DNA of 64,000 nt from Methanosarcinales archaeon (GCA_026016205.1 CP061209.1:33685-97684); one strand, 5' to 3'; counted from the stretch's first letter, positions 1,222 to 59,057 are shown. The notes: generated by a model from the letters alone, not told the origin. A program made the numbers and translations.

Positions 1222-1326
1222 CGGACGTGACGGGATTTGAACCCGCGACCTACAGCTTAGGAGGCACGCGGACAATTGAGGATGTCTCAAATGTTTGCCG
1301 CCCTATCCAAACTAGGCCACACGCCC
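1222..1326 (-). tRNA. tRNA-Arg(CCU) with a ~30-nt intron at a non-canonical position inside the anticodon stem (about 29/30)
   Basis: The reverse complement reads GGGCGTG-TG-GCCT-AGTTTGGATA-GGGC-G-GCA[AACATTTGAGACATCCTCAATTGTCCGCGT]GC-CTCCTAA-GCTGT-AGGTC-GCGGG-TTCAAAT-CCCGT-CACGTCC-G. Removing 1266-1295 gives a 75-nt cloverleaf. The acceptor stem is 7 bp with one G-U. The D-loop has GG. The anticodon stem GCAGC/GCTGT is 5 bp including one G-U pair. The anticodon loop is CU-CCU-AA and the T-loop is TTCAAAT. Confidence 0.6.
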
Positions 1327-1479
1327 GAAGACGTATTGTTTACGATTCCATCTTTAATGTATCGATTGGTGTAGGTGATAAATGATATGGTTGACAAATG
1401 ATGATGACATGATGATGTGTCAATAGGTATTTAAGCAACGAGTGATATTTTGATATTTAATAGATAGCGGGATGATGTA

Positions 1480-2262
1480 ATGGCTAAGAAGAGCGTGGCT
1501 AAGAAGGAAGCGCCCAGTATAAAAAAACAAGAACGAGTGCTTACTGGAATACCTGGATTTGATGAGTTGTGTCATGGAGGGCTTATCAGAAACAGGACCT
1601 ATCTGCTTTCTGGAACATCTGGCGCTGGCAAAAGCATCTTCGCGTTACAATATTTGTACAACGGGGCTATTAAATACAACGAACCGGGCATTTATGTTGC
1701 CACAGAGGAAAGGCCAGCAGAAATACGGCAGAATGCGCTTAACTTTGGATGGGATTTGAAGGCGTTAGAAGATGAAAATAAGCTGGCGCTAATCGATGCC
1801 TGTGCCGCCAAAATCGGCGTCCCCTCTAAGGAAAAGTACGTTGATGTCAGACCTCTTGACATGCGCTCTATGATGGACCAGCTTATCACGATACAGGAAA
1901 AAATTAATGCAAAAAGAGCGGTAGTAGACTCTTCTACATCGATTGGCTTTTACCTTATGCAGGATCTGGGCAAAATAAGGCTTGAACTGCTCAAACTGAG
2001 CACTACGCTGGAAATCTTGGGATTAACATCGTTACTAACCTGTGAGGTTATTGATGGCTCACAGATAAGCCGATTTGATGTGGAGAACTTCGTGACCGAG
2101 GGTACCATTGCAATATATTACAAGAGGAGTGAAAACGTGCGAACCAGGAGCATAGAGGTATACAAGATGAGGGGCACAGACCACAGCCATAAGATACATC
2201 CATTTGAAATTACTCCCAAGGGAATAGTAGTTCATCCCAAGGAAGAGGTCTTTGATTTTTAG
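1480..2262 (+). CDS. KaiC-like RecA-superfamily ATPase (single domain)
   Basis: N-terminal 'TGIPGFDELCHGGL' and an intact Walker A 'LLSGTSGAGKS'. The C-terminal 'IEVYKMRGTDHS...HPFEITPKGIVV' is typical of archaeal KaiC/RadA-like proteins. Confidence 0.85.
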   Translation: MAKKSVAKKEAPSIKKQERVLTGIPGFDELCHGGLIRNRTYLLSGTSGAGKSIFALQYLYNGAIKYNEPGIYVATEERPAEIRQNALNFGWDLKALEDENKLALIDACAAKIGVPSKEKYVDVRPLDMRSMMDQLITIQEKINAKRAVVDSSTSIGFYLMQDLGKIRLELLKLSTTLEILGLTSLLTCEVIDGSQISRFDVENFVTEGTIAIYYKRSENVRTRSIEVYKMRGTDHSHKIHPFEITPKGIVVHPKEEVFDF

Positions 2263-2393
2263 TCTACACCAGTTTCGTGCCCACAGTTCGGGCACTTGAA
2301 CACACGTCGCTTGGCGTTGCGTTTATAGATATCTATTAGCCTGCGCCTCCAAGGAAACATTCTTGCGCCGCATTTCGGGCATATTTTATCCAT
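2259..2393 (-). CDS. Small zinc-ribbon protein (44 aa), not in the ORF track
   Basis: My translation is MDKICPKCGARMFPWRRRLIDIYKRNAKRRVFKCPNCGHETGVD. It has two CPxCG knuckles (a four-Cys zinc ribbon) and sits between the kaiC-like gene and the PIN/KH ATPase gene. Confidence 0.5.
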   Translation of the reverse strand: MDKICPKCGARMFPWRRRLIDIYKRNAKRRVFKCPNCGHETGVD

Positions 2394-2405
2394 CTCGTTT
2401 GCCTC

Positions 2406-55896: not shown

Positions 55897-55930
55897 AAAC
55901 CATGTAGATGGCAAATTCGAAAGAATACAG
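55897..55930 (+). other. 23S rRNA processing-stem 5' arm (pairs with 58921-58955)
   Basis: AAACCATGTAGATGGCAAATTCGAAAGAATACAG matches the reverse complement of 58921-58955 (AAACCATATAGATGGCAAATTCTAGAGAATACATG). The two are near-perfectly complementary, with a short internal mismatch block. Confidence 0.8.
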
Positions 55931-55961
55931 GTGATCCGGACGCTCACTGAGTTTAGTAAAA

Positions 55962-58892
55962 CTGGCAAATATGCCATCCGGTGAATGGCTCGGCTCAAGT
56001 GCCGATGAAGAACGTGCCAAGCTGCGATAAGCCTCGGGTAGGCGCATGGAGCCTTTGAACCGAGGATGTTCTAATGGGAATCCCGACTCCTTCGGGAGTC
56101 GATCCACGAGATTGGGAACGCCCCGGATTGAAACATCTTAGTAGGGGCAGGAAGAGAAATCGAAGAGATGCCGTTAGTAAAGGCGATCGAAAGCGGCAAA
56201 GTTCAAACTGAATCCCTTTGCGAAGAGTAAAGGGAGATGTGGGGTTGTAAGCCAAGCCATATGCAGTCCAAACTGGTTAAATCGAGGTCCTCTGGAAAGG
56301 GGCGCCAAAGAGTGTGATAGCCACGTAGATGTAAGCCAGTGGATTGTGGCTTGGTCTTGAGTACCGTTGCTTGGATATGCAGCGGGAATTTGGGAGGCAC
56401 CAACTTCCAAAACTAAACACATCTTGAGACCGATAGCGCAATAGTACCGTGAGGGAAAGCTGAAAAGCACCCCAAAAAGGGAGGTGCAAAGAGCCTGAAA
56501 TCGGATGGTGATGGAGCGATATGGCATGAAAGGATCTTCGCCGTGAAGGAATCTGTCGCGAGGCAGTAGTACGGGCGGCGTTGCCGATGTCGTATCATAC
56601 GTTTTGAAGAACGGGCCAGGGAATGTATCCAAGTGGCGAGACTAAGCTGGAAGCAGCGGAGTCAGAGCGAAAGCAACAAGCACGCAGCCTTCGGGCGAGG
56701 TGCGATGTGTACAAGCGCATGAAGTCACTGGGGTACGACCCGGAACCGGGCGATCTAGGCGTGGGCAGGATGAAGCGTTTCGTAAGAGGCGTGGAGGTCC
56801 GCTAGCGGTGTTGATATGCAAATCACTCGCGTGACCTGCGTCTAGGGGTGAAAGTCCAATCGAGCCCGGAGACAGCTGGTTCCTTCCGAAACATGTCGCA
56901 GCATGACCTGATTAGAGATAGTCGGCGGAGTAGAGCTACTGATTGAGGGAGCCGGGTGGGAAACTGCCCGTCCCTCTGTCAAACTCCAAAGCCGCCGTCG
57001 TCATAGAAGATCAGAGTCCGGGCTAGGGGGTAAGCTTCTAGTCCGTGAGGGAGACAACCCAGACCATGGTTAAGGTCCCAAAGTGTCGGCTAAGTGTTAA
57101 CACTAAAGGGCGTTTCAAGCCCTAGACAGCTGGAAGGTGAGCTTAGAAGCAGCTACCCTTTAAAAAGTGCGTAACAGCTTACCAGTCGAGGTTTGGAGCC
57201 CCGAAAATGGACGGGGCTCAAGCCGACCACCGATACCATTTTGGAGCATCGTAAGATGATCTGGTAGGAAGGCGTTCTGTGTGGGCAGAAGTTTCTCCGT
57301 GAGGAGGAGTGGACCGCATAGAAACGAAAATCCTGGCAATAGTAGCAGCATAGTCGGGTGGGAATCCCGACCGCCGGAAGGGCTAGGTTTCCTCGGCAAT
57401 GTTCGTCAGCCGAGGGTTAGTCGGTCCTAAGGTGTGTCCTAATTGGAGCACATCAAATGGGAAACAGGTTAATATTCCTGTACCAACCAACTGCATCGCG
57501 TTAAGCGATCCGACACCTCAGGGTAGATCAGGCAGCGCCATCGCGCTGTTCAAGCGTCGAAACTCATGGAGAGCCGTAATGGCGAGAAGTGGGTGAATGC
57601 GTAATGACGAAAGTTGATTAATCCCCGGGGTCCGTGAAAAGGAAGTTGGATGGCCGTACCGAGATCTGACACAGGTGCCCCTGGTTGAAAAGACCAAGGC
57701 GTGTCGGCATAATCTGGCTAAGGTAATTCGGCAAATTAGCTCCGTAACTTCGGGAGAAGGAGTGCCTGCTTTGTAGAAAGCAGGTCGCAGTGACGAGGGG
57801 GCTCTAACTGTTTAATAAAAACATAGGCGATCGCTAACCCGTAAGGGCAAGTACGATCGCTGAATCCTGCCCAGTGCGGGTATCTGAACCTTGGGTTCAA
57901 CCAAGCGAAGGACCCGTAAACGGCGGGGGTAACTATGACCCTCTTAAGGTAGCGTAGTACCTTGCCGCTTAATTGGCGGCTTGCATGAATGGAACAATGA
58001 GAGCCCTACTGTCCCTAGCCAGAAACCGGCGAACTTTACATCCCAGTGCAGAGTCTGGGGACCCCTAATGGGAAGTGAAGACCCCGTGGAGCTTTACTGC
58101 AGCCTGTCGTTGAGTTGTGGCTTTAGATGTACAGCGTAGGTAGGAGGCATCGATCCGTTCTCGTCAGGGAACGGGGAGTCGACAATGGGACACTACCCTT
58201 CTGAAACTACGACTCTTACTTCCTTGGAAGGACACCGATAGGTGGGCAGTTTGGCTGGGGCGGCACGCCCTTGAAAAGATATCAAGGGCGCCCTAAGGTT
58301 GGCTCAAGCGGGTCAGAAATCCGCTGAAGAGCGCAAGAGCATAAGCCAGCCTGACGTGATTTCGCATAGCAAGAAATCACGAGACGAAAGTCGGGTCTAG
58401 CGAACCAATAAGCCTCCTTGGTGGGGGCTATTGATGACAGAAAAGCTACCCCGGGGATAACAGAGTCGTCACCGGCAAGAGCACATATCGACCCGGTGGC
58501 TTGCTACCTCGATGTCGGTTCTCTCCATCCTGGCCGTGCAGCAGCGGCCAAGGGTGAGGTTGTTCGCCTATTAAAGGAGATCGTGAGCTGGGTTTAGACC
58601 GTCGTGAGACAGGTCGGTTACTATCTGTTAGGGGTGTATTGAGGTCTGAGGGGAAGTTGCCTTTAGTACGAGAGGAACAGGGCAACGGTGCCTCTAGTCT
58701 ATCGGTTGTCCGACAGGGCATTGCCGAGCAGCCACGCACTGGTGGATAAGTGCTGAATGCATCTAAGCACGAAACCATTCCTAAAAAGAGACCTCTTGAG
58801 GACACTCTTAGAAGAAGAGATTGATAGAGTCGGGATGTAAGCGCCAAGGCAACGAGGCGTTCAGTCCGCGACTACTAACGTCCACGCCAGTT
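55962..58892 (+). rRNA. 23S rRNA (archaeal)
   Basis: The 5' region CTGGCAAATATGCCATCCGGTGAATGGCTCGGCTCAAGTGCCGATGAAGAACGTGCCAAGCTGCGATAAGCC is present, and the sarcin-ricin loop AGTACGAGAGGAAC is at about 58666. The 3' ...ACGCCAG pairs with the 5' CTGGC. End positions are accurate to about +/-10 nt. Confidence 0.95.
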
Positions 58893-58970
58893 AATCTGAG
58901 CTCAGGCGATATTTGGGTCGCATGTATTCTCTAGAATTTGCCATCTATATGGTTTAAATGCCGTCTTCGC

Positions 58971-59057
58971 GCCAAGGTGGCGGAATGGCTAACGCAGCCG
59001 CCTGCAGACGAATAGGAAGAGAGCGGCTTTTTGCCGGTTCAATTCCGGTCCTTGGCT
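58971..59057 (+). tRNA. tRNA-Cys(GCA) between 23S and 5S, with a ~14-nt intron (59008-59021)
   Basis: GCCAAGG-TG-GCGG-AATGGCTA-ACGC-A-GCCGC-CTGCAG[ACGAATAGGAAGAG]A-GCGGC-TTTTT-GCCGG-TTCAATT-CCGGT-CCTTGGC-T. The discriminator is U73, as expected for Cys. Confidence 0.8.

Follow-up and report, generated by a model that had tools for sequence, protein, structure and literature searches.

Why should four of the five transfer RNA (tRNA) genes in one stretch of an archaeal chromosome appear to be interrupted, when introns are few in typical Euryarchaeota and are expected mainly in the tRNAs for Trp, Met and Tyr? The stretch in question, 64,000 nucleotides of a Methanosarcinales archaeon (GCA_026016205.1, CP061209.1:33685-97684), is called the window here, and unprefixed positions are counted from its first nucleotide. 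It corresponds to G000:33685-97684, in a genome of 987,146 bp that forms a single contig and is scored 86.8% complete. An earlier note on the window had claimed the four interruptions as introns. Our answer is that they are very probably genuine archaeal bulge-helix-bulge (BHB) introns, and that they belong to a tRNA set which is rich in introns throughout the order and in which introns turn over quickly.

Interrupted tRNA genes in the window

The window was searched for tRNA genes with the Rfam model RF00005 and with ARAGORN, the latter run with and without its intron option. Rfam placed five genes in it, ARAGORN with introns allowed found the same five, and a scan for the T-loop pattern revealed no sixth T-arm in the window. 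Four of the five genes show an unaligned insert in the anticodon loop of the Rfam alignment. In addition, all pairs of cut sites fitting BHB geometry were enumerated and the spliced products were re-scored. This splice search agreed with both programs that four genes contain introns and that tRNA-Ser(CGA), a class II gene of 86 nt at 45857 to 45942 (plus strand) recognized by both Rfam and ARAGORN, is the only uninterrupted one, just as had been claimed. The intron lengths proposed earlier, about 30, 45, 59 and about 14 nt, were recovered as exactly 30, 45, 59 and 14 nt. ARAGORN's own intron placement was wrong in three of the four genes, which it named Glu(ctc), Tyr(gta) and Phe(aaa), and the placement guided by the BHB motif, which restores the identity elements, was preferred.

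Three of the introns lie at position 37/38 of genes on the plus strand. The tRNA-His(GUG) gene (53684 to 53801 including an encoded G-1; Rfam match 53685 to 53801, 117 nt, 39.8 bits) contains a 45-nt intron at 53722 to 53766 and yields a spliced tRNA-His(gtg) of 72 nt. Its junctions form a strict hBHBh' motif, with four of four pairs in the central helix, five in the outer helix h and four in the inner helix h'. A strict motif (central 4/4, h 5, h' 3) also encloses the 59-nt intron at 55645 to 55703 of the spacer tRNA-Ala(UGC) gene (55608 to 55739, 132 nt, 55.4 bits), whose spliced product, tRNA-Ala(tgc), is 73 nt long. The tRNA-Cys(GCA) gene (58971 to 59057, 87 nt, 50.8 bits) has a 14-nt intron at 59008 to 59021 and gives a spliced tRNA-Cys(gca) of 73 nt; here the motif is relaxed, with three of four central pairs and one G·A, six outer pairs and one inner pair. 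The fourth intron is that of tRNA-Arg(CCU), encoded on the minus strand at 1222 to 1326 (105 nt, 41.2 bits), the spliced product of which, 75 nt, is called as tRNA-Arg(cct). This intron, at 1266 to 1295, is real and 30 nt long as had been stated, but it does not lie in the anticodon loop: it is found at the non-canonical position 29/30, in the 5′ strand of the anticodon stem, within a strict motif (central 4/4, h 3, h' 3).

Removal of the introns leaves canonical cloverleaves with the right anticodons and identity elements. Among the latter we read G-1 of tRNA-His at 53684 opposite C73, the G3:U70 pair of tRNA-Ala and U73 of tRNA-Cys. As a control for chance, the intron boundaries were kept fixed and 20,000 shuffled introns were scored for the observed central and inner helices; 7 did as well for His, 29 for Arg, 83 for Ala and 565 for Cys. 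The minimum free energy fold of the Arg(CCU) precursor is itself BHB-like. Folding of the junctions, a check proposed in the earlier note, thus gave a strict motif for His, Ala and Arg and a relaxed one for Cys, and these results support the view that all four interruptions would behave as archaeal BHB introns.

Intron load across the genome and the order

In G000, 20 of the 40 Rfam tRNA matches measure at least 92 nt. The census of individual genes took in 37 Rfam matches read whole and two in part, plus one gene that Rfam missed; the 97-nt match at G000:592006-592102 was not seen as sequence, and that at 594340-594455 was seen in its 3′ part only. On this basis at least 24 of 41 tRNA genes (about 60%) are interrupted, which supplies the whole-genome count that the window called for. 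Eighteen of them have their intron at 37/38, Arg(CCU) at 29/30, Ile(GAU) in the D-stem, and Leu(UAA), Leu(UAG) and Leu(GAG) in the D-loop, while Ala(GGC) has two introns, the second at 45/46 and the first placed by hand rather than by the automatic search. All 17 uninterrupted genes were typed, and none duplicates an interrupted one; in particular, none is His, Cys, Ala(UGC) or Arg(CCU).

One of these 17 is tRNA-Trp(CCA) (G000:661672-661745, 74 nt). tRNA-Trp is the classic intron host of euryarchaea, its intron carrying a box C/D small RNA (sRNA). With Trp(CCA) free of an intron, an intron-encoded box C/D sRNA of the tRNA-Trp type was not found in G000, and a permissive Rfam search of positions 53000 to 60000 of the window gave no sRNA match.

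For the genomes other than G000, tRNA matches of 90 nt or more were counted as long. They make up 15 of 32 matches in G002, 11 of 29 in G004, 15 of 37 in G005 and 10 of 30 in G010, all of this order, compared with 4 of 46 in G014, 0 of 44 in G016 and 3 of 45 in G019, which represent other families of the phylum. Over-long matches therefore amount to 33-50% in the order against 0-9% in the three other Halobacteriota genomes. The contrast with typical Euryarchaeota drawn in the earlier note is real, both by these figures and by the value of less than 10% given in a review, although the customary Trp intron is missing here. The number of tRNAs that Rfam detects also differs: 21-38 per genome in G001 to G013, even at 94-97% completeness, and 40 in G000, against 44-46 in other Halobacteriota. 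This low count suggests that the order has further, more heavily disrupted genes.

How such genes escape detection can be seen at G000:14895-15330, where Leu(UAG), Leu(UAA) and Thr(GGU) stand in tandem and the two Leu genes are each interrupted in the D-loop: Leu(UAA) went wholly unrecognized by Rfam, which picked up no more of Leu(UAG) than its 3′ 83 nt. Standard tRNA models undercount here, and annotation as well as tRNA-based metrics of completeness and quality are biased low for this clade. The 34-nt intron of Thr(GGU) (G000:14895-15000) contains CTGATGA, a C-box-like heptamer overlapping CTGA.

Variation among relatives

Intron presence and position differ between close relatives. The Arg(CCU) locus was compared next to the same DUF5806 gene in the public relatives L031, L032 and L034. 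L031 has the same 30-nt intron at 29/30 with four substitutions, and L032, in which the neighbouring protein is 94% identical, is without it and has instead a 71-nt intron at 37/38 in a perfect BHB. In L034, a single-cell genome with 70% identity, the Arg(CCU) gene is an uninterrupted 75 nt with near-identical exons, matching the exon junction that we had predicted.

The other three genes vary within their introns. In a sister strain represented in DNA run X2, all differences within the His, Ala and Cys genes fall in the introns, and those of Cys are limited to the intron loop. Among the His orthologues (G001, G002 and run X2) the exons and the BHB nucleotides are kept while the intron interior varies. 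The Ala(UGC) intron is found at 37/38 in all three families of the order, with lengths of 37-129 nt; it still pairs with nucleotides 32-35, in part by way of pair-preserving A>G and C>U changes, and its interior diverges.

The splicing endonuclease

The whole 987-kb genome (86.8% complete) was searched for PF01974 at E <= 1. A single locus was found, with two matches in one open reading frame beside trpS, and the search revealed neither a separate β subunit gene nor a second EndA gene. The predicted chain of 348-354 aa consists of two tandem repeats, can be aligned from end to end with the A. fulgidus α'2 structures 1R0V and 2GJW, and is collinear, at 54-57% identity, with the EndA proteins of Methanocella, Methanococcoides, Methanosalsum and Methanothrix. 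The catalytic Tyr, His and Lys are kept in the C-terminal repeat (FRAYEK...HSKYLV...SVRKR), and the His is absent from the N-terminal repeat. According to the alignment, EndA has none of the specificity loops CSL/L1, ASL/L2 and L3, being one residue longer than the A. fulgidus enzyme at the CSL site. The subunit type, a further check raised by the earlier note, is α'2, encoded at one locus with two PF01974 domains, and the genome's only splicing endonuclease appears to be an unmodified homodimeric enzyme of this type.

Lineages with α4 or α'2 enzymes have been described as having introns in less than 10% of their tRNA genes, with one canonical intron each (PMC4090602), and only the loop-bearing (αβ)2 and ε2 enzymes as cutting relaxed motifs efficiently (PMC4090602, PMC6379350, PMC5829648). 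The α'2 enzyme can, according to the same three studies, cut bulge-helix-loop motifs at 37/38 in a full-length precursor. In G000 the motifs are strict for the non-canonical introns of Arg and Ile, and the relaxed ones lie mostly at 37/38, which is in keeping with the range reported for α'2. That range is harder to square with Leu(UAG), which lacks an outer helix, and with the two U·U pairs of Ala(GGC). The order breaks the accepted link between enzyme type and intron load, having an ordinary α'2 enzyme and yet about 60% of its tRNA genes interrupted, some of them at non-canonical positions. Either α'2 is more permissive than has been thought, or intron load is set by the supply of introns rather than by the range of the enzyme.

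The rRNA operon and RNA evidence

The three interrupted genes on the plus strand accompany the ribosomal RNA (rRNA) genes, the order from 53684 to 59279 being His, 16S (54044 to 55516, Rfam 1580 bits), Ala, 23S (55957 to 58895, 2958 bits), Cys and 5S (59158 to 59279, 93 bits), all on that strand. All three tRNA genes had been claimed as embedded in the rRNA operon. This holds for Ala, in the 16S-23S spacer, and for Cys, between 23S and 5S, but tRNA-His, which precedes 16S by about 240 nt, is not enclosed by the 16S processing stem and is therefore a neighbour rather than a shown member of the operon. A TATA-like TTAAATATA is found at about 53820, between tRNA-His and the 16S processing stem, and tRNA-His may accordingly have a transcript of its own. 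A bacterial promoter and terminator scan of the His-16S region was uninformative for archaea.

The 23S precursor is flanked by a perfect BHB, in which 55941-55944 pairs with 58905-58908 as the central helix and the predicted cuts are 55946/55947 and 58910/58911. In metatranscriptome contigs of runs X6 and X7, position 58910 is joined to 55947, and the 132 + 154 nt involved match the window with zero mismatches. The junction, that of a circular pre-23S, falls after the second nucleotide of each 3-nt bulge. Because it sits exactly at the predicted cuts, BHB cleavage and ligation operate in situ in this organism; the ligation activity is implied by the circular form. A relative in run X8 has an equivalent circular pre-16S junction (about 55551 to 53998). 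The dependence of the operon on BHB cleavage, which the earlier note had pointed to, is borne out for the 23S precursor in these RNA contigs.

The introns could be removed in the same way. The pre-tRNA would fold so that the two splice sites lie in 3-nt bulges with a 4-bp helix between them, the single α'2 EndA would cut after the second nucleotide of each bulge, and an RtcB-type ligase would then join the exons and circularise the intron. Since the same chemistry would free the 16S and 23S precursors, the introns of the spacer tRNA-Ala and of tRNA-Cys would add endonuclease sites to the operon.

A palindromic module shared among introns

Many introns have in common a module of about 35 nt, in which a hairpin, AAACTTTTT-loop-AAAAAGTTT, precedes GAYCAAAA and a closing strand. 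The 15-mer AAAGYTTGAYCARAA has 10 exact copies in G000 against 0 for a reversed-pattern control, and 14 against 3 with one mismatch permitted. tRNA introns account for six of the exact copies, namely those of His (module at 53724 to 53756, plus strand), Thr(UGU), Gly(UCC), Ser(UGA), Arg(GCG) and Leu(UAA), and Gly(CCC) contains a one-mismatch copy. Exact copies number 3-8 in other genomes of the genus, 4 in G004 and 0-1 in family f3, and seven genomes sampled elsewhere in the phylum, from other families, had none.

Copies of the module are not confined to introns. A motif match lies directly 3′ of tRNA-Ala in the 16S-23S spacer (55740 to 55770, plus strand), and an antisense copy, matched on the minus strand at 43015 to 43029, lies in the P3 hairpin (43009 to 43047, plus strand) of the RNase P RNA gene (42988 to 43299). 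The P3 loop has 26 extra nt relative to the Rfam model. In G000 the gene measures 312 nt and contains one copy, whereas in G002 (L061) it contains two and measures 432 nt.

Introns of tRNAs of different identity resemble each other closely: the His and Arg(GCG) introns are identical at 39 of 44 positions, Thr(UGU) and Gly(UCC) at 29 of 30, and the Ser(UGA) intron and the reverse complement of the Leu(UAA) D-loop intron at 37 of 39, with z = 15-25 against shuffles. What unrelated introns have in common is the internal module; at the 3′ end, the need to pair with nucleotides 32-35 makes each intron specific to its own tRNA.

Both presence and orientation of the module vary. The Lys(CUU) intron has it in G002 and not in G000, and Arg(UCU) is intron-less in G000 and has a module-bearing intron in G001 and G004. 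The module in the Leu(UAA) D-loop intron runs antisense in G000 but sense in G002, the intron interior in G003 being different, and its orientation in Leu(CAG) differs between G001 and G002. After tRNA-Ala, a 23-nt hairpin between TCAAA direct repeats is present in G000 and G002 and absent in G001 and run X2. Independence of orientation and dispensability argue for a DNA-level repeat at tolerant sites rather than a strand-specific RNA signal, and we infer that the module is mobile. Introns turn over quickly, and the module behaves at the DNA level like a repeat that is common to unrelated tRNAs, variable between strains and invertible between flanking inverted repeats. The shared module, the inversions and the swaps of position between sister species are rare, datable traces of gain and loss of archaeal tRNA introns.

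A bolder proposal, which we hold only tentatively and think has somewhat less than an even chance of being correct, is that this invertible palindromic element of about 35 nt actively seeds, reshapes and perhaps creates introns and enters other stable-RNA sites, and that the unmodified α'2 enzyme processes the non-canonical or relaxed substrates that result. If the module does seed introns, the order would be a living system in which to watch the gain of archaeal tRNA introns, and a counter-example to the rule that the enzyme sets the load.

A second recurring hairpin module (…TGTGCTRCATTCGCT…AGTAGCAC, or the shorter GCATTCGCTYAAACGAAGTGC) follows GATCAAAA in the spacers of clustered tRNAs, at G000:738063-738173 and in other inter-tRNA spacers (L004, L007 and L010), and is also found in introns or trailers of some relatives (G003, locus L055; G004, loci L051 and L068). 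In the window, the 3′ trailer of tRNA-Arg(CCU) (1198 to 1221, minus strand) reads as a hairpin resembling the second hairpin of the Gly(UCC) intron.

Alternative explanations

Several observations weigh against reading the interruptions as BHB introns cut by α'2. The minimum free energy folds of the Ala and Cys precursors have no visible BHB, and the motif is relaxed in Cys (G·A in the central helix), Ala(GGC) (two U·U) and Leu(UAG) (no outer helix), with an inner helix of only 0-1 bp in many 37/38 introns, while α'2 enzymes are reported to handle relaxed motifs poorly outside the 37/38 context (PMC6379350, PMC5829648). The RNA runs X6, X7, X8 and X21 show a depth of zero at all the tRNA loci examined (the operon and a five-tRNA cluster), so that tRNA splicing itself, including the cutting of relaxed motifs by the α'2 enzyme, is something we infer. 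About five expected tRNAs were also not found in the G000 census, which drew on the Rfam matches, 30 fetched loci and the loci of the motif. This last point, together with the completeness score of 86.8%, could mean that the interrupted genes are pseudogenes or assembly artefacts and that the functional tRNAs are encoded elsewhere. We regard this as extremely improbable: the same genes are interrupted in assemblies made independently and in different species (runs X1 and X2, locus L031 and genomes G001 to G012), the exons are invariant and the introns variable, there is no uninterrupted copy among the 40 Rfam matches, and most amino acids would have no tRNA if 24 of the genes were pseudogenes. 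Just as little credit can be given to an uninterrupted tRNA-Cys of 87 nt in which the anticodon loop has 8 nt and the variable arm is long. The one uninterrupted alternative fold that came up was the "tRNA-???" of 87 nt reported, besides Ser(CGA) and nothing more, by ARAGORN without its intron option, and it would have a four-base anticodon and a class II arm. Taking out the 14 nt gives instead a standard class I tRNA-Cys with GCA, U73 and a 7-nt loop; the excised segment forms a helix flanked by two AGA bulges, and the strain in run X2 has a 1-nt insertion and two substitutions exactly inside it.

The hairpins common to introns, tRNA 3′ trailers and inter-tRNA spacers, and the 5′ halves in G004 that are followed by very long inserts, bring to mind genes transcribed as halves from a terminator and a promoter inside the supposed intron and joined in trans, like adjacent split tRNA genes. 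The introns of Cys, Asn, Arg and Ile, at 12-30 nt, are too short for such signals, however, the halves are contiguous and in order, the module is without a clear TATA box and folding in cis yields good BHB motifs, all of which make this account quite improbable. It is less far-fetched, though still unlikely, that the module is a selected RNA or DNA signal, such as a site for a processing protein or a terminator and promoter pair, and not selfish or mobile DNA. It stands at a fixed place, 2 nt past the 5′ splice site or 1-2 nt past the tRNA 3′ end, it begins with AAAAGYTT, which resembles the sequence upstream of tRNA-His, and its T-runs are like archaeal terminators. Such a signal would not be expected in both orientations at one intron site, as seen in Leu(UAA) of G000 and G002 and in Leu(CAG) of G001 and G002, nor to be dispensable in the 16S-23S spacer of G001 and run X2; moreover, most introns do not contain the module, and it is all but missing from family f3, a family just as rich in introns. 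The interpretation as BHB introns with rapid turnover draws on gene structures, BHB geometry, enzyme type, order-wide distribution, and the paralogy and polymorphism of introns, all of which are established at the level of sequence.

Relation to known intron systems

The mechanism is the ordinary one of a BHB intron; what stands out is the extraordinary frequency, the unexpected lineage and enzyme type, and the clear signs of ongoing turnover. As in the archaeal systems served by EndA and RtcB, for example tRNA-Trp and tRNA-Met of Haloferax volcanii or the introns of Methanocaldococcus jannaschii, the junctions lie in two 3-nt bulges 4 bp apart and mostly at 37/38, the α'2 EndA is that of other Halobacteriota, and the rRNA processing stems use the BHB, with circular pre-rRNA observed. 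Differences from those systems are the load (about 60% here, less than 10% there), the lack of an intron in Trp, the presence of two introns in one gene, and intron sites at 29/30 and 45/46 as well as in the D-stem and D-loop. Dense, non-canonical and multiple introns, relaxed motifs and tRNA genes missed by standard models are known from Thermoproteales, Thaumarchaeota, ARMAN and Asgard. Those sets go with (αβ)2 or ε2 EndA bearing specificity loops, whereas here the enzyme is α'2 without L1-, L2- or L3-type loops, in a lineage inside Halobacteriota with a genome of about 1 Mb. The tRNA-Glu(UUC) of Methanopyrus kandleri, with a D-loop intron at 20b/21 and a canonical one, offers a euryarchaeal parallel for D-loop introns alongside an EndA without a specificity loop; that species, however, has an (αβ)2 enzyme and few introns, in contrast to the α'2 enzyme and the majority of genes interrupted here.

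The transposed introns of Thermoproteales (PMC4090602) are likewise near-identical in unrelated tRNAs, occupy canonical and non-canonical sites, and differ in presence between close species. Here, in contrast, an internal palindromic module is shared and not the whole intron, and the module is also found in spacers, 3′ trailers and the P3 of RNase P RNA, and in both orientations at one site.

The order to which G000 belongs has genomes of 0.7-1.6 Mb and consists of small-genome, non-methanogenic relatives of Methanocellales within Halobacteriota; the published Met12, whose circular genome has been described as that of a non-methanogenic Methanocellales member, is probably part of it, and the main text of that description is silent on tRNAs and introns (PMC11176372). 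In the Met12-like G004, behind the 5′ halves of Gln(CUG) and Arg(UCU) come the module and a long additional stretch (loci L051, L060 and L068), and these long inserts may be very long introns or split genes. Its Thr(UGU) intron is about 119 nt long with a nested insertion, and its Rfam tRNA matches reach 170-194 nt.

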